Shown piece by piece: positions 15,721 to 31,521 of a DNA stretch of 64,000 nt. Under the pieces are notes generated by a model, which saw only the letters and a program-made list of their open reading frames with translations, made no database searches and was not told the origin of the DNA. The stretch's first letter is position 1. Each line of letters opens with the position of its first letter. The stretch lies in assembly GCA_039091535.1 (NCBI GenBank), contig JAWCLW010000001.1, positions 145,073-209,072 on the forward strand, read 5' to 3'. The position numbers were made by a program, and so were the translations under genes. This stretch comes from Candidatus Aenigmatarchaeota archaeon. GTDB taxonomy: Archaea > Aenigmatarchaeota > Aenigmatarchaeia > GW2011-AR5.

Positions 15721-17976
15721 ATGGTCTGTGATTATGAATACAATGAAGAGACACAAAAGATACGTGTTGATTGTATAGGATGCATCTATGGTTCTAGCAT
15801 AGAAGATTTTGGAACATGCATGGCAAAAACAATAGACAAACTTATGGAACTAAGAAAGGTTGTTCGTATCGTTCTTGCTGGCACAAGAGAATATGAATAC
15901 GATTTTTCGGAATCAAGATTGCTCTTAGAAATTGCAATTGCAATCGACAAAATAATTAAGGAAAAAATAATTTCATTAAAAAATGTTGTTATCAAGGGCT
16001 GCGAAGAGGATGCGCCAAGCAGGTATGCATTTTTGCAAAATTTGTTAAATGGAATGAGATACGACCCAATAGATGCTTATAAAAAGCTTATACGAGAGAT
16101 AAGACACACAAAAATAAAAGCAGAGCGTGAAAAAGATATTGTAAGAGAGTGTTATGAACATTATCTTGTGAATGCATTACTACCTATACAAAGAATTTTA
16201 GAAAATTGTAAATTAATTCAGATAGCCAAACCAAACCTAGAAGATCATAAAAACCGCTATTTATATAGGAAAATATTTCATCCAACTGTAAGACCTAACT
16301 TCATATATACAAGATATATATCGTTGCCACCACCAAACGCAGAATTACTTGACAGATACAAAATAGGTGACACAGACGTAGAGATTTACAATATTCCTGG
16401 AAAAGTGAGAAAATTATATCATATAATTCCACCTGAATTCAAATTGAACGAAGAAGAATATACATTGCTCGATACGGCAAGGCGATATCTTGGCAGACAT
16501 GAACCATTGGAGACTGAACTAGCTGAGCCAGAAAGGATAAGAGAGAATCTATTTAGAATAGGTTTGGATATGCTTCGTGAACTTGCAACAAATAGCAACA
16601 TACAATTATCAGAAGATAAGTTAAATAAATTAGCAGGTATACTTACAAGATACACAGCAGGCCTAGGTATTTTAGATTTGATTTTACAAGATGAAAATAT
16701 ACAAGATGTTGCGGTAAATTCTCCTCTTGGTCGAGCACCAATCTATATTTTTCATGGTATCTTTCAAGAGTGTGAAACAAACATAGTTCCAAGTAAAGAG
16801 GATGGAGAATCTTGGGCAACAAGATTTAGATTGCAGAGTGGTCGTCCATTGGACGAAGCAAACCCTGTATTGGATACAGAATTATCAGTACCTGGGGGAC
16901 GCGCACGTGTTGCAGCGATAACAAGAACCTTATCACCTGATGGACTTGGTTTTGCATTTCGACGTCATAGAGATAAACCATGGACATTCCCCTTGTTCAT
17001 AAATAATAAGATGATAGATTCGTTTTCTGCTGGTTTGGTCTGGTTTCTTATAGATGGATCAAGAACATTATTGATAGCAGGGACAAGGTCATCAGGAAAG
17101 TCGTCTTTCCTTGGAGCATGTATGGTTCAGATAATGCCAAAATTGAGAATAATAACAACAGAGGATACTCTTGAACTCCCGGTAGAACAATTAAGAGAAT
17201 TAGGCTATAATATTGAAAGATTAAAATCACGAAGTGTTATAACACATATAGAAACAGAACTACCAGCAGAAGAGGCACTAAGAACAGCATTACGTCTTGG
17301 CGATTCATGTCTTATTGTAGGTGAGGTAAGATCAAAAGAAGCTTTGGCACTATATGAGGCAATGAGAATTGGAGCGCTTGCAAATGTTGTTGCAGGTACA
17401 ATTCACGGAGACTCTGCATATGGTGTTTTTGATAGAGTTGTTAATGATTTAGGAGTTCCTCTAACAAGCTTTAAAGCAACAGATATTATTTTAATATGCA
17501 ATATGTTAAAATCGCCTGATGGTCTTCGTTCTTTTCGTCGTGTTGTTGAACTTACAGAAGTTAGAAAGCATTGGAAAAATGATCCACTAGATGAAGGTGG
17601 CTTTGTTAATTTATTAGAGTATTCTGCAAAGGACGATATATTAAAACCAACAAAAACATTGCTTACTGGTGAATCTATAATATTAAATGATATTGCTTCT
17701 CGTGTTCGTGAATGGAAGGGGAATTGGGATGCTGTTTGGGGTAATATAAAGCTTCGTGAAAAAATATTGCAAACTCTTGTTGACTACGCAAATGCAACAA
17801 AGAATTTTGATATAATAGAAGCACATAATGTTGTAGAATCAAATTCACAATTTCATATTATAAGCAATGAAGTAAAAGAAGAATATGGTGAATTAGATAA
17901 TAGATTAATCTATGAAAGATGGCAAGAATGGTTAAAGAAAAAAATAAAAAATACTATTACTATGAAAAATTCTTAA
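15721..17976 (+). CDS. type II/IV secretion-family ATPase (FlaI/PilB/VirB11-like) of an archaeal type IV filament system
   Basis: 751 aa. Walker A is GTRSSGKS (17080..17103). It also has the Asp-box-like RIITTEDTLEL, the Walker B-like GDSCLIVGEVRSKEA and the His-box-like GTIHGDSA. The N-terminal domain is long and family-variable. Confidence 0.85.
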   Translation: MVCDYEYNEETQKIRVDCIGCIYGSSIEDFGTCMAKTIDKLMELRKVVRIVLAGTREYEYDFSESRLLLEIAIAIDKIIKEKIISLKNVVIKGCEEDAPSRYAFLQNLLNGMRYDPIDAYKKLIREIRHTKIKAEREKDIVRECYEHYLVNALLPIQRILENCKLIQIAKPNLEDHKNRYLYRKIFHPTVRPNFIYTRYISLPPPNAELLDRYKIGDTDVEIYNIPGKVRKLYHIIPPEFKLNEEEYTLLDTARRYLGRHEPLETELAEPERIRENLFRIGLDMLRELATNSNIQLSEDKLNKLAGILTRYTAGLGILDLILQDENIQDVAVNSPLGRAPIYIFHGIFQECETNIVPSKEDGESWATRFRLQSGRPLDEANPVLDTELSVPGGRARVAAITRTLSPDGLGFAFRRHRDKPWTFPLFINNKMIDSFSAGLVWFLIDGSRTLLIAGTRSSGKSSFLGACMVQIMPKLRIITTEDTLELPVEQLRELGYNIERLKSRSVITHIETELPAEEALRTALRLGDSCLIVGEVRSKEALALYEAMRIGALANVVAGTIHGDSAYGVFDRVVNDLGVPLTSFKATDIILICNMLKSPDGLRSFRRVVELTEVRKHWKNDPLDEGGFVNLLEYSAKDDILKPTKTLLTGESIILNDIASRVREWKGNWDAVWGNIKLREKILQTLVDYANATKNFDIIEAHNVVESNSQFHIISNEVKEEYGELDNRLIYERWQEWLKKKIKNTITMKNS

Positions 17977-18011
17977 TTAATCTGAACACATGCACTCATT
18001 AATTTATCAGA

Positions 18012-18461
18012 TTAGCTGCTACATGTTGGTGTTGTTGTGTGTATTGCTGATATACCAGGGCAGTATGTCAAAATAGTTGTCTTTGAATAATCAGAACATC
18101 CAGGTCCAACCTGTACACCTGTGACCTGAATTGTTCCTATTGCACCTCTATTCAGTGTGAATGTTGTTGTATTTTGGAAATTGCCACCTGTCTTATTTGT
18201 TAACATAGCACTTGATATTGTAATCTCTCTGACCCCAGTATTTTTAACAATAACATTAGCTATGCCAGTATTATTGTTTATGTATACAGAATCTATTTCT
18301 ATCGCAGCTCCTGAACATTCCACAATCTCAGTTGATTTATTTCCTACACCACTTGTTGTTGATGTTGTAAAACTTGTTCCCCATGTTATTATAAGTACCG
18401 CAGCTGTTACAGTAAATGCTATAAGCAATACTGCTGCTATTAGAGGCGATATTCCTTTCAT
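18012..18461 (-). CDS. archaeal type IV pilin (class III signal peptide, Pilin_N/DUF361-like)
   Basis: MKG-ISPLIAAVLLIAFTVTAAVLIITWG.. is the canonical archaeal pilin/flagellin N-terminus. The body is Thr/Asn-rich with sequons, and GC is locally higher. The gene is divergent from the platform gene. Confidence 0.85.
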   Translation of the reverse strand: MKGISPLIAAVLLIAFTVTAAVLIITWGTSFTTSTTSGVGNKSTEIVECSGAAIEIDSVYINNNTGIANVIVKNTGVREITISSAMLTNKTGGNFQNTTTFTLNRGAIGTIQVTGVQVGPGCSDYSKTTILTYCPGISAIHTTTPTCSS

Positions 18462-18639
18462 AACTATAGAAATAGTAAATAGGTAATATAAATAAATTTG
18501 TATAAATTAGAAAATAAATTGTATAAACTTTGATTACAAGCAAAAATGGCAGATTTCTATCTATTTAACTATTTCTGGAAGATTTCAAAATAAATCCAAA
18601 CATTTATTTAGTTGTATACAATAATTATTAGGTGTATCA

Positions 18640-20643
18640 ATGGGATTTATAAGGAAAAGACCAGAAAAGAGTAAAGAAAAAGAAAAGTTGATTAAAGCAA
18701 GAGAAGCAAAAATAAAAGAAATAATTTCACGTGAATACAAATTGTATAAAGAAGAGGAAAGATTAGCTTCTTTACCAAGAACATTCTATGAAAAAGCCTG
18801 CAAATTTAGTGAAAAATCTATAAAAATAAAACCAGATGAAAAGACAGGGAAAAAAATAGAAGAGGCTATAAAATTTTCTCATTTGAATATTACACCAGAA
18901 GGTGTTGCATCACTTACTATATTGTTTGCATTGGTGACAAGCGTACCTACACTCATTCTTATAATACTAAATATATTTGGTCTGCCTGGAATATCTGTTG
19001 GCTATGGTATGATCATTATGTTACTTTCTATGTTTTTTACATACTATCTTTATACATATCCTTTTCATTTAAAGAAGAGATACGAAATAGATGTAGGGTC
19101 AGAAATTGTGACAATGATATTGTATATGGCAATGTACATGAGAAATGTGCCAAATCTTGAGGGTGCACTACGTTTTGCATCAGAAAATTTGACTGGACCA
19201 TTAGGATACGAGCTGAAAAAGCTTATGTGGGATGTTGAAGTTGGAAATTATGTTAATGTTCAAGATGCATTAATGGATTATACAAGAAAATGGTCTCAAA
19301 ACAAAGAACTTATTGAATCAATAGAATTATTGATAACATCTTTGAAACAAGTTGGCGAAAGAAGATTATCATTGCTAGATGAAGCAGTTAACATAATACT
19401 TGAAGGCAACAGAGAACAAGCAAAACACTTTAACCAAAAATTAAAGATGCCCGTTATGGTTGTGCATGCGCTTGGTATAATATTACCAGTTATGGGTCTT
19501 GTTTTATTTCCAGTTGTTGCTATCTTTCTGCGAGTTGAGGCAACAATTTTATTTGTTGGTTATGATATTCTTCTTCCATTTATACTTTATTTTGTGATAA
19601 CAAACATACTTGAGATAAGACCATCAACATTCAGTAAAATAGATATAACAGAGAATCCGGATGTTCCACCATCAGGAAAATTCAAATTTGGAAAAACCTT
19701 TGTAAGAGCTTGGCCATTTGGACTTATTGCTGGGACAATTGTTTTATCACTTGGAATTATTGTATCTTTTAATGATGAGGAGGGCATAATATCCGCAATA
19801 CTGATTTTATTTGGCATAGCATTTGGATTTGCTTTATATTATATCTTACTTTCTAATCAGAGACTAAAAGTGAGAGAAAAGACAAGAAAGATTGAAGGGG
19901 AATTTGCAGAGGCCTTATTCCAATTGGGAAATCAAATAGGTGGTGGGACACCGATAGAATTATCTATTGAACACTCAATGGAAAGGATAAAAAATCTAGA
20001 AATAAGAAATCTATTCTCGCGTGCATTAAATAATATGAAATCTCTTGGATTTACATTTTCGCAAGCATTCTTTGATAAAGAATATGGAGCAATAAGATAT
20101 TATCCATCAAAAATGATAAAATCTATAATGCATACAGTTGTTGAATCTACAAAAAAAGGTGTAAGCACCGCTGCTGTTGCTATGCTATCTGTTTCGCGTT
20201 ATTTGAAAGGTCTTCATCAAACACAAGAGGATATAAAAGAACAATTAAATGACACTCTAAACTCCTTAAAATTTCAACTGTTATTTTTGTCTCCATTGAT
20301 ATCAGGTGTTATTGTAACACTTGCAATAATAATAATGCGTATCCTAAAACAATTATCGGAACAATCAACTGCGCTATCAACAGGTTCATTACCATTTATA
20401 TCACAGTTTGGCGAAGCTAATATAACACCTTTTCAATTTTTGTTTGTTGTGGGAATTTATCTTATAGAAACATGTTTCATTTTATCAATGTTTATAAATA
20501 CAATAGAGAATGGTGAAGATCCTATAGGTTGGTATAACCTTACAGGATATTCATTGATTATTGGGTTCGTTGTTTTTTCAATATGTTTATTTGCTACACT
20601 TACTGTGTTTGGCCCATTGATAAGTTCAACACTGACTAGTTGA
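18640..20643 (+). CDS. FlaJ/TadC/PilC-like polytopic platform protein
   Basis: 667 aa with a charged cytoplasmic N-terminus and two blocks of TM helices. These are separated by soluble segments resembling T2SSF domains (..LEGALRFASENLTGPLGYELKKLMWDVEVGNYVNVQDALMDY..). It sits next to the ATPase and pilin. Confidence 0.65.
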   Translation: MGFIRKRPEKSKEKEKLIKAREAKIKEIISREYKLYKEEERLASLPRTFYEKACKFSEKSIKIKPDEKTGKKIEEAIKFSHLNITPEGVASLTILFALVTSVPTLILIILNIFGLPGISVGYGMIIMLLSMFFTYYLYTYPFHLKKRYEIDVGSEIVTMILYMAMYMRNVPNLEGALRFASENLTGPLGYELKKLMWDVEVGNYVNVQDALMDYTRKWSQNKELIESIELLITSLKQVGERRLSLLDEAVNIILEGNREQAKHFNQKLKMPVMVVHALGIILPVMGLVLFPVVAIFLRVEATILFVGYDILLPFILYFVITNILEIRPSTFSKIDITENPDVPPSGKFKFGKTFVRAWPFGLIAGTIVLSLGIIVSFNDEEGIISAILILFGIAFGFALYYILLSNQRLKVREKTRKIEGEFAEALFQLGNQIGGGTPIELSIEHSMERIKNLEIRNLFSRALNNMKSLGFTFSQAFFDKEYGAIRYYPSKMIKSIMHTVVESTKKGVSTAAVAMLSVSRYLKGLHQTQEDIKEQLNDTLNSLKFQLLFLSPLISGVIVTLAIIIMRILKQLSEQSTALSTGSLPFISQFGEANITPFQFLFVVGIYLIETCFILSMFINTIENGEDPIGWYNLTGYSLIIGFVVFSICLFATLTVFGPLISSTLTS

Positions 20644-20710: not shown

Positions 20711-20974
20711 ATGAATTTACCTTGGTTTGTAGTTTGTGTTCTTATAACACTTCTCATACTAGGTTTATTGTGGGCCATAACAAATGGATTAATAAATATA
20801 ACAAGACCAGAAGCAGTATTATCAATATTTCTTTATAGAAAAAAAGGTATGGAAGCGGATTTGGTGAGAGTTATTTTATACATATTGATTGTTGTTGCAT
20901 TATCTATGGCATTGTTTTATGCACTTGACCAAAAAGGATTTACAGAACTTTTTGCAAACATGCCAATCAAATAG
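20711..20974 (+). CDS. small membrane protein (2 TM); second half resembles a pilin-like leader
   Basis: 87 aa. The internal ..RKKG-MEADLVRVILYILIVVALSMALFYAL looks like K-G plus a hydrophobic helix. Confidence 0.5.
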   Translation: MNLPWFVVCVLITLLILGLLWAITNGLINITRPEAVLSIFLYRKKGMEADLVRVILYILIVVALSMALFYALDQKGFTELFANMPIK

Positions 20975-20982
20975 GTGAAAAA

Positions 20983-21138
20983 ATGGAATTAACTGCAAAA
21001 ACATTGACAATAATAATATTTGTAATTATGGTAGCATTTGTTTTATTCTTATTTTTTGGAAGTTTTGCATCAGAAGCAGGTGCACCAGCAAGCAATATAT
21101 TCTATAAGTTATTTGATTGGATAAGCGGATTTATATAA
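20983..21138 (+). CDS. small N-terminally anchored protein
   Basis: Hand-translated 51-aa ORF absent from the track: MELTAKTLTIIIFVIMVAFVLFLFFGSFASEAGAPASNIFYKLFDWISGFI. It starts 8 nt after the previous stop. Confidence 0.5.
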   Translation: MELTAKTLTIIIFVIMVAFVLFLFFGSFASEAGAPASNIFYKLFDWISGFI

Positions 21139-21178
21139 AAATTATAATTAGAAAAACTAAATAGTTGACAGTGATTAT

Positions 21179-22051
21179 ATGGAGCTTGGAGCCATCGTTA
21201 CTGGATTAATAGCATTGGTTGTGCTTGGTTTGATGTTAATGCTACCAAAAGGTATAACAACAATTGTTCAAGAAAATATAACAAAATTGACGCCAGACTA
21301 CATAAAACTTGAAAATTATGATATAAGATTAAATTATCAACCATTATCTGATAATAAATTTTTATATTCAATATTTTTATCTCCAATAATCTCTTATTCG
21401 GGTAAGATTGAACATGATACATCCATTATTTCTTTTATTGAATTCAAGAGTAAAAGTCAAAAGATGATTGTAGTGGAAGGACTTAAATCAGATGATAACC
21501 CTGTAATTCCAAAAGCTACAAAAAAATTTGATGGCACATTAAAAGCAGAAATACAAAGTGAGATCCCACCTATATTTGATTGGGTGTATCAGAAAAACCT
21601 CAACAAACCACTTATTGAAGGTCAATCTATTATAATAGATAAAAAATTTATTGTGACCTTGTTTGATCTGGATGAAACCCTTTTTGATAAATTAAATCCA
21701 TTAAGAAGTAGATGTGCAGTAAAATTTCTAATTGAATGTAAAAATGAAGTAAAAACATTGAGTTTAAGGGATGATGACAATGAACAAGAAAAAGATGTAG
21801 AACTATGTGGTGCAAACATAAAAATAAATTTAAAAGAAACAAATGACTGCAAATCTGCAGATGTAGATATTATTTATACAAAGCTTGGTGAAATACCTGA
21901 TTTTGATATAAAAGAAAAATTATGGTTGAGTTTATGGAGAAATACAGATTGTGTCAGATTATGGCATACATATGAAGATTTATTTGAACATTGTTTTGGA
22001 GATCTTCTAGGAAGATATAAATTATATCATAATTTGTTAATTCCAAAATAG
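21179..22051 (+). CDS. N-terminal-helix (pilin-like?) secreted protein
   Basis: 290 aa starting MELGAIVTGLIALVVLGLMLML, followed by a soluble domain with a few Cys. Confidence 0.6.
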   Translation: MELGAIVTGLIALVVLGLMLMLPKGITTIVQENITKLTPDYIKLENYDIRLNYQPLSDNKFLYSIFLSPIISYSGKIEHDTSIISFIEFKSKSQKMIVVEGLKSDDNPVIPKATKKFDGTLKAEIQSEIPPIFDWVYQKNLNKPLIEGQSIIIDKKFIVTLFDLDETLFDKLNPLRSRCAVKFLIECKNEVKTLSLRDDDNEQEKDVELCGANIKINLKETNDCKSADVDIIYTKLGEIPDFDIKEKLWLSLWRNTDCVRLWHTYEDLFEHCFGDLLGRYKLYHNLLIPK

Positions 22052-22299
22052 TAGATCTGTATATGTTTTATATATAACCAAAAAGGACAAATAGTATCAT
22101 CTTCAGACTCGCAACCAATTCATGTATTATTTTATCTAATTAATTCCCCGTAAATCATCGTATTTTATTTCTAGTAATTCGACCCAAACTTCAAAATTTG
22201 TTAAATTTTTCTATCTTCTTTCTATTTATAATTTTATTGCTCTTACTATTTCTTACAGCACTAAAAATATTTAATTAAGCCTCATCAATAATAGTAAAT

Positions 22300-23361
22300 A
22301 TGCCTGTACATTTATCACAGTCTGCTGTCATATATTTAATTCTTATGTTAGTTGTTATTTTTATAGGTCTTATGATAGTCACGAAAGGAAAGATATTGCT
22401 TACTGGTGAAGGTGCAAAATTATCAAAGATGTTTGAGTATGGTGACATAAAACTTATAGGTGATGCAGAAATCCCAGAAGAAAAAATAAAGATAGAATGT
22501 ATAGAGGATGAAAATGGATATAAAATAAAAAATATTGTATTGAATTCTGCATCATTTGAATATTATGGAAAAGAAGATAAAATAGAATTTATGATAGTTT
22601 TAGATCTGGGGAATGCTTTACGTGTTGGATATGACGAAAACGAAGAGTATAAAATAATATGTGAATTAAAAGATAAAAAAATGCAATGTGATCCACCAAA
22701 AAACATTTGGTTTTATGTGAATGATTATGACCAAAACAAAATAAAATCACGTGAATATTTTCACTTCACGATTTGGAGAGCAAAATTAATGATACTAGAG
22801 CATGGAGGTCATAATCTTAATGGAAAAAAACTTAAGGAATTGATAGATAAGTATTCTCCATATTATCTTGGTTCATTTGGACTTGGTGGGTTTACAATTG
22901 ATCAGAAATGCAGAGGATGGTCTTGTGACAAATTAAAAGAGAATGAATGCAAGACAAATTCAAATTGCTATTGGTCTGTATCTGTAAATATTTGGTTTGG
23001 GCGTATAATGAGTAAATGTAATGCATGTCCTACAGAAGAAAATTGTAAAAAATATAATACAGAATCTATGTGTACGCAATGTTCATATCCAAAAAACAAT
23101 TGTAAATGGTATGAAAATTATTGCAGAACAAAAGATTATGCTGAACTAGATGAAAAATGTAAAAAATGTAGTGGAAAAACAAAATGTGATGAAAATACAT
23201 GCATAAACACAGATCCAAAGTGTTGGTTCAAATTTGATAATACGTGTCGTGCATGTTATGAAGATGCGAAGTGTGAGATGTTTGCAGCAGAGGATTGTGC
23301 AGATGCTAGTAGATGTGGTTTAAATTGCAAAGTAGAAAATAAAATTTGTGTAAGTGAGTAA
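22300..23361 (+). CDS. N-terminally anchored protein with PSI-like Cys-rich C-terminal modules
   Basis: 353 aa with N-terminal helix AVIYLILMLVVIFIGLMIV. Residues 204-350 hold 23 Cys in C..C....C......C.W patterns (ECKTNSNCYW, KNNCKWYENYC, DPKCWFKFDNTCRAC). Confidence 0.7.
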   Translation: MPVHLSQSAVIYLILMLVVIFIGLMIVTKGKILLTGEGAKLSKMFEYGDIKLIGDAEIPEEKIKIECIEDENGYKIKNIVLNSASFEYYGKEDKIEFMIVLDLGNALRVGYDENEEYKIICELKDKKMQCDPPKNIWFYVNDYDQNKIKSREYFHFTIWRAKLMILEHGGHNLNGKKLKELIDKYSPYYLGSFGLGGFTIDQKCRGWSCDKLKENECKTNSNCYWSVSVNIWFGRIMSKCNACPTEENCKKYNTESMCTQCSYPKNNCKWYENYCRTKDYAELDEKCKKCSGKTKCDENTCINTDPKCWFKFDNTCRACYEDAKCEMFAAEDCADASRCGLNCKVENKICVSE

Positions 23362-23362
23362 A

Positions 23363-23494
23363 ATGATATTTGATATACCTGTTAAATATATTTTGTTGAT
23401 TTTAATTTTATTACTTATTGTTATTCTCCTTGGACTTTGGCGTAGTAGTGCATTTCAATCATTAGATTTAATAAAAAGTATATTAGGAGTGTGA
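23363..23494 (+). CDS. small single-TM protein
   Basis: Hand-translated 43-aa ORF: MIFDIPVKYILLILILLLIVILLGLWRSSAFQSLDLIKSILGV. It starts 1 nt after the previous stop. Confidence 0.45.
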   Translation: MIFDIPVKYILLILILLLIVILLGLWRSSAFQSLDLIKSILGV

Positions 23495-23498
23495 TAAA

Positions 23499-23621
23499 AT
23501 GAGAATAGAATATGTGGTTGTTGGATTTGTGCTTGCTGCAATAATTTTATTTGTTGCAATAAGTATGCTCAAGAATGTAATCCCTGGAGTTGAATCTATA
23601 TTCAATCTCTTTGGTGGTTAG
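23499..23621 (+). CDS. small single-TM protein
   Basis: Hand-translated 40-aa ORF: MRIEYVVVGFVLAAIILFVAISMLKNVIPGVESIFNLFGG. Confidence 0.45.
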   Translation: MRIEYVVVGFVLAAIILFVAISMLKNVIPGVESIFNLFGG

Positions 23622-25278: not shown

Positions 25279-25347
25279 ATTATCCATTATTTCTTAATAG
25301 AAAATCTTATTTATATCATGAAAATAATATTTTGTTAGTGAATAATT

Positions 25348-25761
25348 ATGAAAGGTGTAGAACCATTACAATGGGCATTTATAGTGCTAGTACTTTTATT
25401 AGTTTTCATTTTGTTTGCAATAAATCCATTACAGCAGGCGATAGATGCAGCGATAGCAAATAATGCAATGATAAATGCAAATTTTTTAGCTTCTATCATA
25501 AATCTTATGCAAGCATCAGCAAGTAATATGGAATATATGTTGGATTTGCCAAAAACAGATTGTATAATAAAAATAAATGAAAAAGGGGTAACATATCATT
25601 CAACAAAAAGGGATATAATTTATACAATGGATTTGATACAAAATTATAAATTAAGCGATTTTAGCAAAAAAATATTGATACCTATTACAGAAATAAATTG
25701 CAAAGATAAAATTGCTATAATAAGAAAAATTGGGAATGCAATCATGGTAGTTGGTGGATAA
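25348..25761 (+). CDS. class III signal peptide (pilin-like) protein
   Basis: MKG-VEPLQWAFIVLVLLLVFILFAINPL.., 137 aa. Confidence 0.7.
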   Translation: MKGVEPLQWAFIVLVLLLVFILFAINPLQQAIDAAIANNAMINANFLASIINLMQASASNMEYMLDLPKTDCIIKINEKGVTYHSTKRDIIYTMDLIQNYKLSDFSKKILIPITEINCKDKIAIIRKIGNAIMVVGG

Positions 25762-26924
25762 TGAAACTAGACCCAATGCAAATTTTCTTTTTCATAATAA
25801 GGATGGGGCCTGCAATAATATTAATAGCACTTATCGCATATGCATTTTTCTCATTTAAGACAGAGGTAAAATCAGATGAAATGGAGAGATTGAACATAGA
25901 ACTTGCTGAAAATATAATGACATCTGATTTAGTTTATGATAAAAGTATATTTGATCCCAAAAAATTACACGATCTTGAAAATAAGATAAACAATATAGAT
26001 AACAAATATCATAATATTGAGATGCCTTTTAGGTCTTGTAAATATGGCTATTATCTTAAAATAGAAAGTGAAGAATTAGCATGCATTGAAAATGAAAATT
26101 GTGAAAATTTCTGTAGAGATGTATGTGGATTGAATGAAATAAAATATGATGAAAATTGCAAATGTAGCAAAGGTATTTTTGGTTGGAAAAAATTTTTTGG
26201 TGACAATGATTGCCAATGCAAAAAAAATGATAAATGGATTGAAAATTACGAATTTGAATTTGGTTACGTCCCTGATAAAGATATTAAAAAAAATTCAAGA
26301 AAATATCCTGTTGCAATAGCAAATATTAATAATGAAAGACCAGAAAATTATTATGAAAGTGTTTATCCGGCTAAGATGCACTTAACGATTTATGACTCCT
26401 GGCTATCTAGAATTTCTTGTGCTATAGAAAGGGCTTATGCGCTAAATGAAGTACAGGAAGTTAATATTCTTGGTATTGGTACAAATTGTTTACCAAAATA
26501 TTATTCTAATTATTATTCTAATTTTAAGTGCATTTCAATAAAAAAATCGGATAGATTTGATAACAGTAACCATATATGTACATATATGTTAAAATATATT
26601 GGTGGTAATGTTAATGAATACGAAATTATCGAATGTAGATATTCTGAAATACCCGTATTTCTTTTCTTTGATGCATATGACAAAAATTCTAAATATGCAA
26701 AAATTATAATATATCCTATAAAAAAATCTGTCATTGACTCACAAATTCTTTATGATACACCAGAACATCCCATCACTTATGTTTCTCTTCAAGATATGAG
26801 TGTCACAAATTGTGGAAAAATAAGAGACCATCCAGAATATATTTCTAAAAATAACGATGAGATCGGTGCAATCGTTTTATGTCTAAAGTCTGAAAAAAAA
26901 TGGAGAGAAGATATGCAATGGTAA
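25761..26924 (+). CDS. N-terminally anchored Cys-containing protein
   Basis: 387 aa. Its start overlaps the previous stop (TAATG). N-terminal helix is GPAIILIALIAYAFFSF, and a Cys cluster reads ..ACIENENCENFCRDVCGLNEIKYDENCKCSKG..DCQCKK. Confidence 0.7.
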   Translation: MKLDPMQIFFFIIRMGPAIILIALIAYAFFSFKTEVKSDEMERLNIELAENIMTSDLVYDKSIFDPKKLHDLENKINNIDNKYHNIEMPFRSCKYGYYLKIESEELACIENENCENFCRDVCGLNEIKYDENCKCSKGIFGWKKFFGDNDCQCKKNDKWIENYEFEFGYVPDKDIKKNSRKYPVAIANINNERPENYYESVYPAKMHLTIYDSWLSRISCAIERAYALNEVQEVNILGIGTNCLPKYYSNYYSNFKCISIKKSDRFDNSNHICTYMLKYIGGNVNEYEIIECRYSEIPVFLFFDAYDKNSKYAKIIIYPIKKSVIDSQILYDTPEHPITYVSLQDMSVTNCGKIRDHPEYISKNNDEIGAIVLCLKSEKKWREDMQW

Positions 26925-27859
26925 AAAAAGGTGTTCCAAAAATGAAAGGTCAACTTCCTGAAGAAATGGGCTGGACATTGATATTTCTTTTAGTCTTTGT
27001 TTTTTTAATAGTGACATTTATAATCTTCGGATTGATTGTAAGGGCTCCGTTTACAGGTATGCAACCACTAAGTTATTCAATAGAATTTGTGAATATGGCA
27101 AATAGACCATATATTCTTGCAGAAATATTATCACATTATATGTTCGATGACAGACAATTCCTTGAGCATGCATTAGAATCTATAATTGTTAACTCGAAAG
27201 AAAAAGCAAATTCTTTAGGAATAGAAAATGGGTTAAAACAATTTCTAAAGTCATATGAGCTAAAATTTTATTCTATATCAGTAAAAAATAAGGATGAAAA
27301 TGAATTGATTTCTGCTAGTAATAAACTCAAAAGATGTGGTGAGAATGGTGTAGGTGTTTGTACAGAGAGATATATATCAGTGTGTAAAATTAAATTTATT
27401 ACATTACCACCACCATTTGGTACTATAATTCGTTCAACTTGTGAGGTTCAGGCTAAAGGTTGCGGAAATGGTAGAATAAAAATTGATGATCCAAATAAAG
27501 ATTGTGCTCTTGCTGAAATATGTTGTATGGAACATAAGGATAATGAAGGACATTATTTAGATGAAAATAATAATATATTACCAAATTGTGGTCCACCAGG
27601 CCAAAAAATTGGAGTTTGTGATGATACGAAACTTCGTAAAGAAATATCTATAAATATAGTATCAAAAAAATATGCCCTTGATGATTGCAGAGATGGTAGA
27701 AAACGCATAGAAGAAGAGGATGATGAATGTAAAGATCCATTAATATGTTGTACACCTTTGAGTGATGTATCTGAAGTAAATCTTATGACAGAGGCGAACA
27801 TACCATTACTATACAAAGATCAGATCTTTGGATACATAGAGGTGGTTATTGGTGACTAA
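26918..27859 (+). CDS. class III signal peptide (pilin-like) protein with duplicated Cys module
   Basis: The ATG at 26918 overlaps the upstream stop (ATGGTAA). The leader is MVKKGVPKMKG-QLPEEMGWTLIFLLVFVFLIVTFIIFGLIV. Two copies of C-x2-GR-x2-I-x6-C-x4-ICC are present. Confidence 0.7.
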   Translation: MVKKGVPKMKGQLPEEMGWTLIFLLVFVFLIVTFIIFGLIVRAPFTGMQPLSYSIEFVNMANRPYILAEILSHYMFDDRQFLEHALESIIVNSKEKANSLGIENGLKQFLKSYELKFYSISVKNKDENELISASNKLKRCGENGVGVCTERYISVCKIKFITLPPPFGTIIRSTCEVQAKGCGNGRIKIDDPNKDCALAEICCMEHKDNEGHYLDENNNILPNCGPPGQKIGVCDDTKLRKEISINIVSKKYALDDCRDGRKRIEEEDDECKDPLICCTPLSDVSEVNLMTEANIPLLYKDQIFGYIEVVIGD

Positions 27860-29696
27860 GGGTGTTGGAACAACTGTTGGTACAATACTTTTAATTGTTG
27901 TGTTATTGTTTTTCCTTATTATTTATGTAAATATGGTTTCTGAGAATACGAAAAATAAAATAAAACTTAATCTTTTATCAGCTGAATTATTAAAAATTGA
28001 AAACACATTCTACATTCTTAATCGCTCATTGGGCATGACATGGTATCTCTCAACAATACAGACAATATTTAATGCAGGCGATAATGGTGTTGGTTGTGGC
28101 AATGATGACGATGAAAATAAATATAGTACAATGTATGGTTATGATATAAGTAATTTGAAAGAAGGTTATTGGTATCAGGGTAATAATGAAAAGCAAAAAA
28201 CGCCACAAAATGGTGATCTATACTGCGAGTCTGTAATACCAACTGGAAAAAAATATAATAAATTAGAATGTAACCCAAAGGTATGCATGCCAAATGCTCT
28301 GTATCTAAAAGAATATCTAATTGAAAAAATGAAAGAGTATCATACAATAAAAACAAATTTTGAAATAAATAATATCGATGTTACCATAGCAGATAATGAT
28401 AAAAATAAAATATCTACTTATTTCTCTGTTGAAGATGATAAAATAAAATCTTATACAACACAAAAATTAAAATTAGAAAATGTTCATACAAAAATAGAAA
28501 CAGATACAAAAAATGAAATAACAATATATACAGAGTTTAACAAAATGATAACTGCTGGTAATTTTATAGTTGCCTATTTATTTGTTTTTTCAAATAATTT
28601 TTTAAACGAGTTTGGATATAAACCAAACACAGAAAATAAGGATACTTATTTGAATTATATAATGAATCATCTTTCTGATAAAATAAAAACATTGCCAGAC
28701 GAGTATAAGATTTTTGGCTTATCAAAAATAAAACCAAAAATATACATAGATTACAAAGATTTTAGAATAAGAGCTCCAACAATTGATGAAAAACAAAATG
28801 GGTTTCAGCCAGGTACAGAACTAATTCTACATTATGATGCAGACATAAAAATTATTGAAGGTGGTGAAGAGCTACCAGAATCAATAACACCTATTTTTGA
28901 TTGGCCGACTAAAAGTAGAAAAATTGTAAGTTGTTATGGTCCAAGAACACATCCAATTTTTGGTGATTCAAGATTCCATAAAGGAATAGATATAGCTCCT
29001 GATACTCAAGGTGATAATGAATATGTAATGGCTATTGAGGATGGTGAGGTTGTGAAAGTTGAAAAGGATTGTGATGATAACAAAAAATGTGGTGGTGGTT
29101 ATGGAAATTATATTCTATTAAAACATGAAAATGGTCTTTATTCATTTTATGCGCATCTTAAAAAGGGTGATGTGTATGCTGAAAAAGGTGACAAAAAAAA
29201 TAAAGGTGATATTATAGCTCGAATGGGAACTAGTGGTGTATCTACTGGTGTTCATCTTCATTTTGAAATAAGATCAGATGAAAAAAAACAAGATAATCCA
29301 TGTAAATATATAGATTGTACACAATCTACAATAAATAAATGTACCATATTTTCTGGTCTAAATTATGGATATTTTTATCATGATGAAGATGAAAATATAT
29401 TTGAAAGAAGACCATTTTCTCTTGTTTTTGGTGTAGAAGATTATTTACCAGTATTGAATTGCAGATTTGATGATGCAATATATAAATTTTATACATGGTA
29501 TAAAACAAATGATATGGTTTGTTGCTATGAAAAATTATGGACATGTAATCTTGATATAGAAAATCTTCCACAAGAAAGAAAAATACCTATTGGCTCTGGA
29601 CCAGATGAATGTAATACAATATTGAGGAATGTAAATCTGAAGATTATTTGTAATTCGAATGGAAGTTTTGAAGTTAGTGTCTTTTCAATAGAATAA
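27849..29696 (+). CDS. pilin-like N-terminus fused to M23 (LytM/lysostaphin-type) metallopeptidase domain
   Basis: The start is TTG/GTG and overlaps the upstream stop. The leader is (M)VTKG-VGTTVGTILLIVVLLFFLIIYV. The M23 core lies at ~28896..29290: FHKGIDIA (HxxxD), YGNYILLKHENGLYSFYAHL, GTSGVSTGVHLHFEIR (HxH). The C-terminal tail is Cys-containing. Confidence 0.85.
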   Translation: MVTKGVGTTVGTILLIVVLLFFLIIYVNMVSENTKNKIKLNLLSAELLKIENTFYILNRSLGMTWYLSTIQTIFNAGDNGVGCGNDDDENKYSTMYGYDISNLKEGYWYQGNNEKQKTPQNGDLYCESVIPTGKKYNKLECNPKVCMPNALYLKEYLIEKMKEYHTIKTNFEINNIDVTIADNDKNKISTYFSVEDDKIKSYTTQKLKLENVHTKIETDTKNEITIYTEFNKMITAGNFIVAYLFVFSNNFLNEFGYKPNTENKDTYLNYIMNHLSDKIKTLPDEYKIFGLSKIKPKIYIDYKDFRIRAPTIDEKQNGFQPGTELILHYDADIKIIEGGEELPESITPIFDWPTKSRKIVSCYGPRTHPIFGDSRFHKGIDIAPDTQGDNEYVMAIEDGEVVKVEKDCDDNKKCGGGYGNYILLKHENGLYSFYAHLKKGDVYAEKGDKKNKGDIIARMGTSGVSTGVHLHFEIRSDEKKQDNPCKYIDCTQSTINKCTIFSGLNYGYFYHDEDENIFERRPFSLVFGVEDYLPVLNCRFDDAIYKFYTWYKTNDMVCCYEKLWTCNLDIENLPQERKIPIGSGPDECNTILRNVNLKIICNSNGSFEVSVFSIE

Positions 29697-29732
29697 AAAT
29701 AATTTAAAATTAAGCAATATTCATATATTTAA

Positions 29733-30224: not shown

Positions 30225-30554
30225 ATGAAAGGTATATCACTCGCAATAGAGACTATTATATTCATAATACTTGGCGTTACTGTACTCACTGTATTACTTT
30301 TCTTCTTTACTTCATTAGGTGGACCAACACAAAATGAAGTAGAAAATCAATTCGAAAGAAATCAATTTTGTGGACGATATGCAAACTATGATCCTAAATG
30401 TGAAAATGTTGATAAAATAATTGATGCAAAACAGAAAGAAGAAATATTAAAAGGAATTGGTGAGGCTTGCAAAGCATTAAAAGTAGAGGGATGCACATCT
30501 ATTCCTCCATCTATTGAATGTATAAAAAATTGTTGCATACATTGCCCAAAATAA
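30225..30554 (+). CDS. class III signal peptide (pilin-like) protein, Cys-rich
   Basis: MKG-ISLAIETIIFIILGVTVLTVLLFFF.., 109 aa, with 8 Cys in the C-terminal half (..IECIKNCCIHCPK). Confidence 0.75.
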   Translation: MKGISLAIETIIFIILGVTVLTVLLFFFTSLGGPTQNEVENQFERNQFCGRYANYDPKCENVDKIIDAKQKEEILKGIGEACKALKVEGCTSIPPSIECIKNCCIHCPK

Positions 30555-30634
30555 AAGGATTAAAACTTTAGGTACGATAAAGTTAATATTGATACAGAAT
30601 CTCAATACTAAAACAATAACTGGAGGTGTAAGTT

Positions 30635-30931
30635 ATGTCAGAAAAAACAGAAAAAGAAAAATCAAGCGACAATATTGTCTTCATCGGCAAAAAACCATCT
30701 ATGAGCTATGTCCTTGCTGTTGTAACCCAATTTGGTGAGGGTCAACAAGAAATTAGTTTAAAGGCACGTGGTAGGTCAATAAGCAAGGCGGTTGATGTCG
30801 CTGAAATTGTTAGAAACAGATTTATACAAGATGTAAAGGTAAAGGATATAAAAATAGGAACAGAGGAAATCGAAGCAGAAAACAAAGAAAAAATCAATGT
30901 TTCAACAATAGAGATAATTTTAAAGAAATAA
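30635..30931 (+). CDS. albA: DNA/RNA-binding protein Alba
   Basis: ..[56 protein letters not shown] is close to the Alba/Sso10b consensus. GGAGGTG lies upstream. Confidence 0.9.
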
Positions 30932-31209
30932 AAACAATTGAAAACCACTTAAACATTTTGTATAAATAATTTTTGTATTTTTTTCTATTTATCATATATA
31001 ATTTTGTTAAACTAATTATATGCAATGATTTTTTTGAGTTTTTTATAGTTTCAAGTCATCAACTAGTAGTTGGTTCTTTTGTATTTCATTTAATTGATTT
31101 TTTACTTTAATCCAATTGTCTAAGATAAATGTTTTTTTGTCGATTACTGAGCAAAAGAAAAACTATTTATATGTCTATTGACATAGTTAATTTAATAAAC
31201 AAAGGGGGT

Positions 31210-31521
31210 ATGAAAATGAAAGGATTGGAATTACCAATAAGTATGATTGTTGTTATTGCAGTAGCTGTTTTGGTTCTTGTTGTGATTGCAGTATTTTTTA
31301 CAGGTCAAACTGCCCTTCAAACAGAAACAATAAAAGTGCAAAACGCGTTGTCTACAGGTTGCCAAAAATTAAGGACTTTATATAACTGCGTGGGCGATTT
31401 AGATTTTACTGTTGGATATATAGAACCTGGCAGAACAGAAGAGGCAACTTTTAAGAGGATTTGTGAATTAAATAAATATTCGGTTGTTGAATGCAAAAAA
31501 TATTGTGGTTGTCCTGCTTAA
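31210..31521 (+). CDS. class III signal peptide (pilin-like) protein, Cys-containing
   Basis: AAAGGGGGT precedes the ATG at 31210. The product starts MKMKG-LELPISMIVVIAVAVLVLVVIAVFF.. and has 6 Cys in its C-terminal half. Confidence 0.7.
   Translation: MKMKGLELPISMIVVIAVAVLVLVVIAVFFTGQTALQTETIKVQNALSTGCQKLRTLYNCVGDLDFTVGYIEPGRTEEATFKRICELNKYSVVECKKYCGCPA

Follow-up and report, generated by a model that had tools for sequence, protein, structure and literature searches.

A type IV filament-type locus of a Candidatus Aenigmatarchaeota archaeon that may display interchangeable peptidoglycan hydrolases

What kind of surface device is encoded where a secretion ATPase and its platform protein are followed by a long run of N-terminally anchored, often Cys-rich proteins, one of them carrying a peptidase? 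The question is raised by a locus in a 64 kb stretch of DNA (the window) from Candidatus Aenigmatarchaeota (DPANN), a tiny archaeon of symbiotic type; the ATPase matches a protein of an NCBI Candidatus Aenigmatarchaeota MAG with 100% identity. The initial annotation had described an oversized, non-archaellum filament locus presenting adhesin-like and lytic modules, and all the elements that it described were located. They are listed here together with a neighbouring pair of coiled-coil genes (slashes mark the predicted cleavage position):

11557..12213, minus strand: 218-aa cytoplasmic protein, coiled coil at the C-terminus
12272..12655, minus strand: 127-aa coiled-coil protein, partner of the 218-aa protein in a conserved pair
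15721..17976, plus strand: 751-aa secretion/assembly ATPase, FlaI/GspE/CpaF superfamily
18012..18461, minus strand: canonical archaeal type IV pilin, 149 aa, divergent, MKG/ISPLIAAVLLIAFTV (MKG/ISPLIAAV)
18640..20643, plus strand: 667-aa polytopic platform protein, FlaJ/TadC-type
20711..20974, plus strand: 87-aa membrane protein, two hydrophobic segments
20983..21138, plus strand: 51-aa pilin-helix-like mini-protein, leader absent in this genome
21179..22051, plus strand: 290-aa extracellular protein (o290), anchored at the N-terminus
22300..23361, plus strand: 353-aa protein, N-terminal anchor, Cys-rich C-terminal half (26 Cys)
23354..23494, plus strand: 46-aa single-helix ORF, position-conserved
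23499..23621, plus strand: 40-aa conserved mini-protein (o40), MR[IL]EY then a hydrophobic helix
23623..25278, plus strand: o562, most conserved accessory protein (562 aa from 23590, start revised)
25348..25761, plus strand: 137-aa pilin-like protein (o137), MKG/VEPLQWAFIVLVLLLV
25761..26924, plus strand: 387-aa Cys-rich protein (o387), N-terminal anchor, 16 Cys, K-G absent
26942..27859, plus strand: ∼305-aa Cys-rich pilin-like protein (o319; 319 aa from 26900), MKG/QLPEEMGW then a helix
27849..29696, plus strand: o615, 615 aa, class III-signal carrier with M23, TKG/VGTT
30225..30554, plus strand: small Cys-containing pilin (o109), 109 aa, MKG/ISLAIETIIF
31210..31521, plus strand: small Cys-containing pilin, ∼103 aa, paralogue of 30225, MKMKG/LELPISMIVVIAV

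The assembly core and the divergent canonical pilin are upheld by profile searches (Pfam T2SSE, 6e-14; Pfam T2SSF, 26.8 bits versus a cut-off of 25.2; NCBIfam TIGR02537, archaellin/type IV pilin N-terminal domain, 31 bits versus a cut-off of 20). The ATPase translation contains GTRSSGKS, GDSCLIVGEVR and GTIHGDSA together with a lineage-specific N-terminal extension of ∼275 aa, and its top PDB matches (A. fulgidus GspE 2OAP, 5e-30; FlaI 4II7, 4e-20) cover aa 275–690 only. Its identity is 65–86% among Aenigmatarchaeota and 49% to Woesearchaeota, the corresponding values for the platform protein, in which 8 TM segments are predicted, being 57–65% and 33%. In related genomes, the two coiled-coil proteins directly adjoin the ATPase as a pair: the 218-aa protein, which gives coiled-coil matches only in Pfam and NCBIfam, is similar to L003 4693–5337 (phmmer, 4.7e-56) and Woesearchaeota L010 6616–7200 (1.8e-16), and the 127-aa protein to L004 16293–16670 (2.9e-34) and L010 7201–7578 (4.2e-07). 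The 18012 pilin has a homologue in none of 13 related loci, and its presence at this position is, judged from these loci, specific to the lineage. The initial failure to recognize a prepilin peptidase is borne out, as no A24 enzyme was detected in the window's TM-rich ORFs, nor any prepilin peptidase in ∼250 kb flanking the related loci. A secreted NAGPA-type glycosidase adjoins the locus, and an S-layer protein is encoded inside the window (47950–50556).

All 11 plus-strand ORFs of the run (starts 20711–27849) possess an N-terminal hydrophobic segment; a 248-nt gap precedes 22300, and overlaps of 1–11 nt between genes (the o137 stop and the start at 25761 share 1 nt) suggest translational coupling. 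The description of the run as pilin-like holds for the N-terminal helix (11/11) but not throughout, with 6 of the 11 lacking K-G in this genome and o562 being a three-TM membrane protein. ‘Oversized’ is likewise a relative term, the Methanococcus Epd locus also comprising 11 genes (10.64898/2026.04.22.720090). Several of the proteins are Cys-rich as had been noted, with 26 cysteines in 353 residues (22300), 16 in 387 (25761), 14 in 319 (26900) and 16 in 615 (27849). The reported K-G sites at 25348, 26900/26942, 27849, 30225 and 31210 were likewise found, each ahead of a hydrophobic stretch, as in the 18012 pilin; K-G is kept in orthologues for five families. A strict K-G rule returns 6 ORFs, all within 18–31.5 kb, the rest of the window having none; signal cleavage at these sites is predicted. 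Pfam Class_IIIsignal and Pilin_N reach threshold on no ORF; TIGR02537 is the sole signal-type profile to do so, on the 18012 pilin only. Some run ORFs without K-G here have a K-G leader in certain orthologues, such as the 51-aa protein (EKKG or RQKG leaders; phmmer 1.9e-13 to L004 8986–9171, MDSMTEKKG/IVITTE; also L007 12741–12923) and the 353-aa protein (L004 5962–6819, 4e-39, ELKG/SIEF). In the o290 and o387 families K-G is never present, no o290 orthologue having such a site.

Among the small pilins, K4, G5 and L8 are invariant (alignment A3), and this family (o109/o130) is found with the operon in Aenigmatarchaeota and Woesearchaeota alike. Orthologues of o109 lie directly 3′ of the hydrolase gene in L002, L009, L014 and L015, and the 31210 family (phmmer 1.7e-14 to L006, 1e-5 to 3e-4 to Woesearchaeota L010–L012) is the only pilin family detectably similar between Aenigmatarchaeota and Woesearchaeota. 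Within the run, orthologue comparison indicates that o562 most likely starts at TTG 23623 (MEAIEELIF) and o319 at ATG 26942 (MKG/Q) instead of 26900; the latter N-terminus, MKG/Q(SS)LPE[DE], is kept in L002 and L009 and reads MKG/D in L006. Of the 6 listed orthologues of o137, 4 keep K/H-G. The o40 protein is found in seven loci (phmmer 4e-11 to 9e-4), invariably directly 5′ of the o562 gene, and o387 orthologues in six (E 4e-37 to 1e-9). The 87-aa protein is weakly similar to L004 9312–9476 (E 1e-3), and the position of the 46-aa ORF is occupied by a small TM ORF of dissimilar sequence in L001 (10065–10217), L002 (12940–13083) and L005 (6129–6299). No family or PDB match was obtained for o387 or the 353-aa protein (Pfam, NCBIfam, PDB), nor any for o290 in Pfam, NCBIfam, PDB or PHROG.

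From its N-terminus, o562 comprises a helix and two extracellular domains separated by a TM hairpin, and 9 of its Cys are invariant (alignment A1). It is no simple pilin because three TM segments are predicted; its orthologues in L005 and L006 begin MKKG/AA. None of its 72 homologues has a Pfam domain, and all given source names are Aenigmatarchaeota or unclassified archaeon. For the confident AF2 model (pLDDT 82, pTM 0.81), Foldseek searches of PDB and BFVD gave no match at E≤1e-3.

The order ATPase–FlaJ–…–o40–o562–o137–o387–o319–hydrolase–o109 recurs in L001, L002, L005, L006, L007, L009 and L014, and in rearranged versions in L004 and L015. The run is conserved beside the ATPase/platform pair in no fewer than seven further genomes of Aenigmatarchaeota, and the same plan is seen in three Woesearchaeota genomes, where about two-thirds of the downstream ORFs begin [KR]-K-G. 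Across species with conserved order, the accessory proteins are only 22–33% identical.

The peptidase noted in the run resides in o615, of which aa 1–345 form the carrier part (an alpha/beta domain with a 72-residue helix at the N-terminus) and aa ∼350–485 (nt ∼28896–29303) the M23 metallopeptidase; a Cys-rich beta domain lies C-terminal to M23. The M23 match is above threshold (Pfam, 2.6e-23 over aa 375–482) and the HxxxD and HxH motifs are intact when aligned to PDB 5J1L; enzyme activity is predicted. In the AF2 model (pLDDT 84), the M23 part matches PDB structures by Foldseek with E down to 3e-12; a pilin-fold match for the carrier domain was not obtained by Foldseek because M23 dominates the output. 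In alignment A2, K-G is present in 13 of the 13 rows with a complete N-terminus, invariant behind leaders of variable length. The carrier domain occurs in 93 cluster representatives, and a domain census covering 65 of them found M23 in 32 and SLT in 32 (both in 13, M23 only in 19, SLT only in 21), besides Amidase_2 (three), CHAP (two), Amidase_3, VanY, Glucosaminidase, SLT_2, Peptidase_M15_4 and NlpC/P60. Ten of the 12 matched families are peptidoglycan-specific, the other two, Glyco_hydro_cc and DUF1287, having one member each; [KR]G followed by a hydrophobic stretch is present in 56/65, behind leaders of 3–41 residues. The relatives of o615 carry interchangeable murein hydrolase modules: orthologues P0203 and P0206 bear SLT and M23, the Woesearchaeota terminal gene (L011 17521–19479) bears Amidase_3 and an M23 with HxD in place of HxH, and the L006 orthologue has lost M23. 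The lytic half of the proposed display is considerably strengthened, with M23, SLT, amidase, CHAP, VanY and others exchanged on the carrier; Pfam, PDB and Foldseek searches returned nothing adhesin-like. A second murein enzyme, an SLT protein, is encoded in the window at 61953–63776.

We consider it probable that the locus encodes a DPANN type IV filament (TFF) machine that presents exchangeable peptidoglycan hydrolases for use against bacteria. Cleavage after the K-G glycine would fall to a prepilin peptidase whose gene would lie in another part of the genome, and the ATPase and platform protein would pull the helices from the membrane to build a short filament or pseudopilus, with small pilins of the 30225, 31210 and 18012 types as subunits. 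The large subunits, the hydrolase carrier among them, would be placed at the tip or the surface. Filament formation, tip location and any adhesin function are putative. Since an S-layer is present and no murein of its own is evident, the hydrolase would be aimed at bacterial peptidoglycan, and may locally open the wall of a bacterium (partner, host or prey) during attachment. The Aenigmatarchaeota have no known host.

Archaeal TFF and T4P-like systems have been classified (Makarova, Koonin & Albers 2016, PMC4858521; Sivabalasarma & Albers 2026, 10.64898/2026.04.22.720090), and DPANN T4P ‘dark-matter islands’ were already noted by Makarova et al. 2019 (PMC6393860, Fig. 2A). The locus shares with them a FlaI/VirB11-superfamily ATPase with a system-specific N-terminal domain, a FlaJ/TadC platform, K-G class III pilins, and many fast-evolving secreted proteins downstream that are predicted pilins. 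It differs in its single 667-aa platform gene (system 1/Epd has two), the absence of the peptidase from the locus, the conserved divergent coiled-coil cytoplasmic pair, the 3-TM protein without a structural match, and the terminal pilin-like murein hydrolase carrier. In the modular pilins of bacteria (Raynaud et al. 2021, PMC8179133), among them Streptococcus sanguinis PilB with a vWA and PilC with a lectin module, the carrier likewise consists of a class III signal plus N-terminal helix, behind which a functional module is grafted; many alternative modules occur in the family, and a tip location is proposed. The signal here is archaeal K-G, however, and not the bacterial G/(F or M)...E5, the carrier is 345 aa with a 72-residue helix and not a small pilin module, and the modules are murein hydrolases, whereas the bacterial survey mentions one peptidase type only (IPR030392). 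M23, SLT or amidase enzymes with bacteria as their presumed target are also known from other murein-free archaea, including Halogranum Woldo/Danwoldo (PMC12352652) and the large proteins with SLT domains from Woesearchaeota/Pacearchaeota (PMC8204110, PMC9723730). These have Sec or Tat signals or none (a recognized signal is found in only 32% of archaeal PGH homologues), and no link to pili has been described for them, unlike the prepilin-type N-terminus and TFF operon described here. Modules such as M23, SLT, amidase and CHAP are also shuffled on a structural carrier, as part of a penetration device, in the lysins with which phages (tape-measure or tail-associated M23/SLT) and bacterial trans-envelope machines (VirB1-type transglycosylases) breach walls; the PHROG matches obtained are to endolysin and tape-measure M23 domains. 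Those lysins belong to a virion or T4SS, whereas the carrier here is a pilin-like, membrane-anchored component of a cellular TFF system.

A possible, though rather unlikely, alternative is a bindosome- or T2SS-like display without a long filament, in which the ATPase and platform protein would do no more than extract class III-signal enzymes and anchor them at the surface, where these would digest free murein debris for amino sugars and amino acids and leave living partners alone. Such signals on non-pilin enzymes and binding proteins are established in the Sulfolobus Bas system (BasEF and class III-signal sugar-binding proteins) and predicted to be widespread (10.64898/2026.04.22.720090); there, as would be the case here, large non-pilin proteins rely on a TFF ATPase/platform pair to reach the surface. 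The ORFs are also mostly large and not pilin-sized, the canonical 18012 pilin is not conserved at its position, and the NAGPA-type glycosidase is adjacent. However, the ATPase scores 49.7 bits against NCBIfam BasE (cut-off 1000), the cargo is hydrolytic and encoded within the operon, the locus shows genes for neither substrate-binding proteins nor an ABC transporter, the small o109/o130 pilins travel with the operon in both phyla, and the M23, SLT and amidase shuffling is closer to phage wall-breaching lysins than to catabolic enzymes.

Improbable is an ordinary adhesion pilus, whose large ORFs would be assembly/alignment components and minor pilins and whose M23 would serve the machine itself. 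Bitopic proteins are common alignment components in bacterial T4P. The M23 role would be pilin processing or own-envelope remodelling for filament passage, as with Neisseria Mpg, and full piliation in Neisseria does need an M23 peptidase (M23B, Mpg; PMC3735123, PMC11980366). Against this, the archaeon bears an S-layer, the window shows no murein genes, and in orthologues M23 is replaced or joined by SLT, Amidase_2/3, CHAP, VanY and glucosaminidase modules, which act on glycan strands and MurNAc-L-Ala or D-Ala bonds absent from an archaeal S-layer. Still less credible are unrelated membrane or secreted neighbours with ordinary uncleaved signal anchors: profile HMMs recognize no class III signal in the downstream ORFs, six run ORFs lack K-G, and N-terminal TM segments are common (22/55 ORFs outside the locus), but this reading is largely refuted by synteny, the order being kept despite low identity and across rearrangements, and also conflicts with the gene overlaps and with K-G limited to the locus and invariant behind leaders of varying length. 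A motility (archaellum) locus whose accessory genes have diverged has next to no probability and is refuted by gene content: FlaI is the top NCBIfam match of the ATPase (1.4e-38) but at 133 bits is far under the cut-off of 550, the only FlaF/G/H-type matches are ArlF/ArlG on the N-terminal region of the 18012 pilin (E 0.003–0.011; 16–18 bits versus 110), in agreement with the absence initially noted, KaiC-like FlaH, FlaC/D/E, FlaX and archaellin occur in none of the scanned ORFs of 11.5–31.5 kb, and the top PDB match is A. fulgidus GspE and not FlaI.

With peptidoglycan hydrolases displayed by a type IV filament machine as the preferred reading, the locus suggests a device at the cell surface with which bacteria are attacked or tapped.

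The locus consists of an archaeal-type type IV filament (TFF) core and a conserved operon. All of the ORFs listed in the initial annotation were recovered at the same coordinates, and the three core components recognized there, a FlaI/PilB-family ATPase, a FlaJ/TadC-like protein and a divergent canonical pilin, are each backed by a profile-HMM match above cut-off. The ATPase (15721–17976) matches Pfam T2SSE at 6e-14 (51.9 bits, cut-off 24.9) and, with its Walker A/B motifs, belongs to the FlaI/GspE/VirB11 superfamily of secretion ATPases, as is characteristic of a TFF. The adjoining 667-aa platform protein of FlaJ/TadC type, with eight predicted TM segments, is just past the threshold for T2SSF (26.8 versus 25.2 bits), and in most related loci its gene likewise adjoins that of the ATPase, with a spacing of 0–15 nt in L001, L002, L009 and L010–L012 (L-numbers denote related loci from other genomes). 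The third TFF hallmark, a class III signal on one or more filament subunits, is provided by the divergent 149-aa ORF at 18012–18461, on which TIGR02537 (NCBIfam, archaellin/type IV pilin N-terminal domain) scores 31 bits against a cut-off of 20. Among solved structures the ATPase is closest to the Archaeoglobus GspE-type protein 2OAP (5e-30), followed by FlaI (4e-20); both align only to residues ∼275–690, implying that the first ∼275 residues are lineage-specific. The ATPase is 100% identical to a protein encoded on a 234-kb contig of a Candidatus Aenigmatarchaeota MAG. More than 100 homologues share 65–86% identity with it, and their source-named lineages are all Aenigmatarchaeota, except for one partial protein labelled Candidatus Uhrbacteria. 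Database orthologues P0031, P0049, P0059 and P0068 carry an intein (LAGLIDADG_3 and Intein_splicing), which the window ATPase lacks. Many orthologues are long (1245–1461 aa), and at L002 (4946–8701), L003 (5822–9676), L004 (12167–15916), L006 (6059–9802) and L012 (5588–9973) the BLAST match to the long ATPase is divided in two.

The same-strand run of 11 ORFs described in the initial annotation is present and comprises eight ORFs of 87–615 aa and three of 40–51 aa. The ORFs are named here by their length, and the small o40 (23499) and o51 (20983) are real genes, given their conservation in other genomes (E 1e-9 to 1e-13). As the G+C content is ∼29% throughout the window, the locus is not a compositional island, and base composition gives no sign of a foreign origin. 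tRNA and Rfam scans of the 64-kb window found nothing.

Gene content rules out an archaellum. The archaellum NCBIfam equivalogs score far below their cut-offs (FlaI 133 of 550, ArlF 17.7 of 110 and ArlG 15.8 of 110 bits), with no further equivalog matches, and the ArlF and ArlG matches sit on the canonical pilin, starting at its N-terminal helix. FlaH (KaiC-like), FlaC/D/E, FlaX and archaellins were also not found among the scanned ORFs between 11.5 and 31.5 kb, and the reported lack of FlaF/G/H holds. An Epd-type system 1 is ruled out by the single platform gene and the lack of a 9-TM peptidase, as opposed to two platform genes plus EppA, and the bindosome (Bas) by a BasE score of 49.7 bits versus 1000; Pfam detects no substrate-binding-protein domain in the locus. 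In agreement with the initial annotation, no A24 prepilin peptidase (PibD/FlaK/EppA) was detected by Pfam among the TM-rich ORFs of the window, which instead returned Yip1, CDP-OH transferases, VTT, CarS and GT2, and neither the window nor any of 13 flanking loci matched in a scan for the GxGD[VA]K motif. The gene for the class III signal peptidase is commonly unlinked from its TFF locus.

Conservation of the operon was assessed by scanning GTDB species representatives with the platform protein, which yielded ten Aenigmatarchaeota-type and three Woesearchaeota loci, and by comparing the window proteins with six-frame ORFs of these loci using BLAST and phmmer. The order ATPase, FlaJ, small TM ORFs and o290/o353-like genes, o40, o562, o137, o387, o319, hydrolase carrier (o615 in the window) and o109 is shared by L001, L002, L005, L006, L007 and L009 as far as the contigs extend, and is kept in L014 through to the downstream Alba and FEN-1 genes. 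The Woesearchaeota loci share the plan (ATPase 43–57% and FlaJ 33% identity), and about two-thirds of their downstream ORFs open with x-K-K-G or R-K-G ahead of a hydrophobic helix. The gene run is kept beside the ATPase/platform pair in seven loci, in addition to Woesearchaeota with the same plan. The accessory proteins are 22–33% identical where ATPase identity is 70–76%; such divergence of accessory proteins within a fixed gene order is what fast-evolving pilus loci typically show. In L004, an inversion affects part of the block. In the rearranged L015 (JGI 3300032046, 408-kb contig), the pilin/hydrolase block directly follows a coiled-coil pair and a trio of 5–6-TM proteins, with no ATPase/FlaJ between this upstream module and the pilin block, which implies that the modules are separable in the genome while staying together.

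In relatives, a pair of divergently transcribed genes lies directly beside the ATPase; one encodes a coiled-coil protein of ∼125 aa, the other a protein of ∼200 aa whose coiled coil is C-terminal. A three-gene insertion parts this pair from the ATPase in the window and is missing from all 13 related loci.

Genes upstream of the ATPase in the window
5165–9055, minus strand: Cys-rich surface-type protein (1296 aa, 73 Cys), NPCBM_assoc/Ig-like matches
9049–11427, minus strand: Cys-rich surface-type protein (792 aa, 37 Cys)
11557–12213: ∼200-aa pair member with C-terminal coiled coil (phmmer 5e-56; 2e-16 to Woesearchaeota)
12272–12655: ∼125-aa coiled-coil pair member (phmmer 3e-34; 4e-7 to Woesearchaeota)
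within 12905–15689 (insertion): secreted 306-aa protein (o306), unmatched to any family
within 12905–15689 (insertion): secreted 304-aa NAGPA phosphodiester glycosidase with an RREFI Tat-like leader
within 12905–15689 (insertion): 122-aa ORF with sub-threshold class I adenylate cyclase similarity

The two Cys-rich genes lie directly upstream of the coiled-coil pair, a position that is elsewhere occupied by three small 5–6-TM proteins. The latter form a tandem trio of paralogues (∼155–195 aa) upstream of the system in Aenigmatarchaeota and Woesearchaeota (L003 2858–4384, L010 4950–6586, L011 5056–6715, L013 4987–6505 and L015 988–2654), often accompanied by a ∼205-aa protein with 2–3 TM segments. 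The trio has no homologue in the window and contains no A24-type motif.

The N-termini of the operon proteins were examined with our own heuristic rather than FlaFind, requiring K/R-G within the first 40 residues and, no more than nine residues further on, a 16-residue uncharged hydrophobic stretch. Strict K-G cases number six within 18–31.5 kb (18012, 25348, 26942, 27849, 30225 and 31210); elsewhere in the window the heuristic returns none, and just three looser K-S or K-A cases. Comparison of orthologues shows that the K-G plus helix motif is kept in five families besides the canonical pilin. The N-terminus of o615 (27849) reads TKG/VGTTVGTILLIVVLLFF, where the slash marks the presumed cleavage point, and K-G occurs in 13 of the 13 rows with a complete N-terminus in the family alignment, behind leaders of 1 to about 27 residues. 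Orthologues of o319 (26942) keep the motif MKG/Q..PE[DE], those of o137 (25348) have K/H-G, and in the small-pilin families of o109 (30225) and o130 (31210) K, G and L are invariant, Woesearchaeota included. Substrates of prepilin peptidase are marked by a basic leader of variable length and an invariant Gly immediately ahead of the helix, and the N-termini of o615, o319, o137 and o109/o130 are, judged by sequence, those expected of such substrates. A prepilin-type N-terminus is thus restricted to this locus and evolutionarily conserved on at least six proteins.

The initial annotation had proposed class III sites in this locus, and the sequences support this for the six strict K-G ORFs; the families of o290, o387 and o40 have K-G in no member. 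Three further families lack K-G in the window and have it in some orthologues, namely o51 (EKKG/IVITTE in L004 and L007), o562 (MKKG/AATPQLTE in L005 and L006) and o353 (ELKG/SIEF in L004). The window copies of these proteins start roughly at the +1 position (MELTAK..., MEAIEE...), which suggests that pilin-derived proteins have lost their leader repeatedly. The o40 family (window 23499–23621, plus strand; 39–50 aa) starts with MR[IL]EY and a hydrophobic helix without leader, resembling mature Flp-type pilins (xxIEY); Pfam Flp gives no match. Of the profile checks put forward in the initial annotation, those for the class III signal gave nothing, in that Pfam Class_IIIsignal and Pilin_N reached threshold on no ORF. 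Among the small ORFs, Class_IIIsignal, Pilin_N and Flp gave nothing at threshold even at E ≤ 10; Pilin_N stayed below threshold, with E 2.3 for the canonical pilin and 0.29 for one o40 orthologue. As neither a Pfam class III match nor, in the window and the related flanks, an A24 peptidase was found, we only infer cleavage at K-G.

The M23 peptidase noted among the large ORFs is confirmed in o615 by a Pfam match (2.6e-23; 82.5 versus 28.7 bits), by intact zinc ligands HxxxD (HKGID) and HxH (HLH) that align to solved M23 enzymes (PDB 5J1L) and by the fold of its structural model. In this AlphaFold2 model (pLDDT 84), a 72-residue N-terminal helix (residues 7–78) is followed by an alpha/beta domain reaching to about residue 340, then by the M23 fold and finally by a beta domain rich in cysteine. 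Foldseek with the whole model returned M23 structures only (E down to 3e-12, target-normalised TM-score up to 0.8 for isolated M23 domains) and none on the pilin fold. Based on domain, ligands and fold, o615 is predicted to be a LytM-type murein endopeptidase. PHROGs gave no matches except to the M23 domain. In two o615 orthologues, P0203 and P0206, an SLT lytic transglycosylase is inserted ahead of M23, and P0206 occupies the same operon position in L014; no M23 is left in the L006 orthologue. In the Woesearchaeota locus L011, the terminal K-K-G gene (17521–19479) encodes M23 together with Amidase_3, and hhalign identifies M23 as the only domain it has in common with the o615 family. In its M23, the second zinc-ligand motif reads H-L-D instead of HxH; the domain is possibly a degenerate LytM.

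An exhaustive phmmer search with the carrier domain alone (o615 residues 1–345) against 1.84 billion cluster representatives returned 93 proteins at E ≤ 1e-3 and 75 at E ≤ 1e-10. The module scan covered the 65 representatives of at least 400 aa, and counts per cluster representative reflect diversity rather than abundance. M23 and SLT are each present in 32 of the 65; an independent jackhmmer count (n = 65) gave 13 with both, 19 with M23 only, 21 with SLT only and 12 with neither. The other Pfam matches are Amidase_2 (3), CHAP (2), Amidase_3, VanY, Glucosaminidase, SLT_2, Peptidase_M15_4, NlpC/P60, Glyco_hydro_cc and DUF1287, such that 10 of the 12 matched families are peptidoglycan-cleavage enzymes, the exceptions being Glyco_hydro_cc and DUF1287 with one member each. 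[KR]G with a hydrophobic stretch occurs in 56 of the 65, and at least four of the nine without it (P0193, P0197, P0346 and P0383) resemble N-terminally truncated gene calls. This is a pilin-like carrier family with interchangeable C-terminal murein-hydrolase payloads. It combines a class III signal and helix with a grafted module unrelated to pilus biogenesis, as bacterial modular pilins do, the graft being M23 in o615 and other murein hydrolases in its relatives; the modular-pilin concept is bacterial in origin (Raynaud et al. 2021, PMC8179133). One member, P0198 (903 aa), has a ∼300-aa insertion within the carrier domain (alignment columns ∼120–400, ‘...YEPVNEFGS...’). A GH5-like identity for this insertion gained no support, as Pfam finds only M23 in P0198; the Glyco_hydro_cc match belongs to another member.

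Among the accessory proteins, o562 most likely starts at TTG 23623, 2 nt past the o40 stop, because the resulting N-terminus agrees with the family consensus. Searches detect 72 family members, whose named sources are all Aenigmatarchaeota or unclassified archaeon; the family has no Pfam domain and nine invariant cysteines. An AlphaFold2 model built from a 50-sequence alignment (pLDDT 82, pTM 0.81) has a long N-terminal helix (residues 12–66), an alpha/beta domain, a hairpin and a beta-rich C-terminal domain, the hydrophobic helical hairpin (279–326) being of low confidence. Foldseek against PDB and BFVD found no match at E ≤ 1e-3, and as modelled o562 is a membrane component without structural match and not a simple pilin. 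By hhalign it has no kinship with the positionally equivalent Woesearchaeota ORF or the o615 family. PDB sequence searches with o290, o353, o387, o319 and o306 gave no matches.

Two further genes of the window bear on the envelope and on murein.

Envelope- and murein-related genes elsewhere in the window
47950–50556, minus strand: S-layer protein, 868 aa (S_layer_C 1e-27)
61953–63776, minus strand: Cys-rich SLT protein, 607 aa with 36 Cys (Pfam SLT 2.5e-12)

G+C is raised only in the stretch of the window that holds the S-layer gene (0.38 versus about 0.29). With the SLT protein, the 64-kb window encodes a second enzyme that targets murein; as called, this one has no obvious N-terminal signal. 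No murein-synthesis family was matched among the scanned window ORFs (about half of the larger ones), and the organism's envelope appears to be of the normal archaeal type. Given the S-layer and the lack of a murein-synthesis match, bacteria are the most plausible target of the murein hydrolases.

The most economical mechanism, which we regard as reasonably probable, is that the pilin-type subunits would insert into the membrane and be cleaved by an unlinked peptidase after the K-G glycine, whereupon the ATPase/platform pair would build them into a short filament or pseudopilus that exposes the large subunits, hydrolase included, towards the bacterial cell wall. The main rival, to which we assign a low probability, is a bindosome-like surface display that scavenges murein debris without a real filament; a 2026 TFF census stresses class III-signal binding proteins (10.64898/2026.04.22.720090). 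That M23 serves the machine's own piliation is unlikely, because the payloads in the family include SLT, amidase, CHAP and VanY. A bolder form of the wall-directed filament, offered tentatively as a possible if doubtful reading, is a host-wall-breaching organelle of bacteria-dwelling DPANN, with a tip carrier whose exchangeable M23/SLT/amidase/CHAP/VanY bits would be tuned to the wall of the partner. A side claim of this reading is that the apparently leaderless o51, o562, o353 and o40 would be translated as ‘pre-matured’ pilin-like helices that bypass prepilin peptidase.

DPANN type IV pilus islands are known to contain unrecognisable ‘dark-matter’ proteins with signal peptides, probably diverse pilins (Makarova et al. 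2019, PMC6393860), and murein transglycosylases in Woesearchaeota/Pacearchaeota have led to proposals of bacterial hosts or predation (Castelle 2021, Vigneron 2022; PMC8204110, PMC9723730). Most DPANN lineages have no known host, and whether any of them use bacteria is still debated (PMC8204110). A 2025 study (PMC12352652) showed that M23 and glucosaminidase enzymes of haloarchaea kill bacteria; it recognised a Sec or Tat signal in only 32% of archaeal peptidoglycan hydrolase homologues and speculated about contractile injection systems. The o615 protein has a prepilin-type N-terminus and is encoded in a TFF operon. Our full-text literature search found no paper tying archaeal peptidoglycan hydrolases to prepilin-type signals or a TFF operon, and the combination thus looks like an undescribed variant rather than a new category.

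A pilus operon that ends in a murein-hydrolase pilin provides a concrete, testable molecular link to bacterial partners, and the type and phylogeny of the module could hint at the kind of wall attacked. The 93-representative carrier family reveals lysin-like module shuffling on a pilin-type carrier and carries the ‘modular pilin’ principle beyond bacteria to archaea, and beyond adhesion to lysis. The conserved o562, o387, o319 and o353, of unknown fold, are candidates for DPANN-specific cell–cell contact machinery, and a prepilin-type signal with a TFF machine offers, for DPANN, a further possible answer to missing Sec/Tat signals. If the host-wall-breaching reading is true, the locus would provide molecular evidence, for the first time, of parasitism of or predation on bacteria by Aenigmatarchaeota and many Woesearchaeota, and prepilin-type signals with a TFF machine would constitute a third export route for archaeal peptidoglycan hydrolases.
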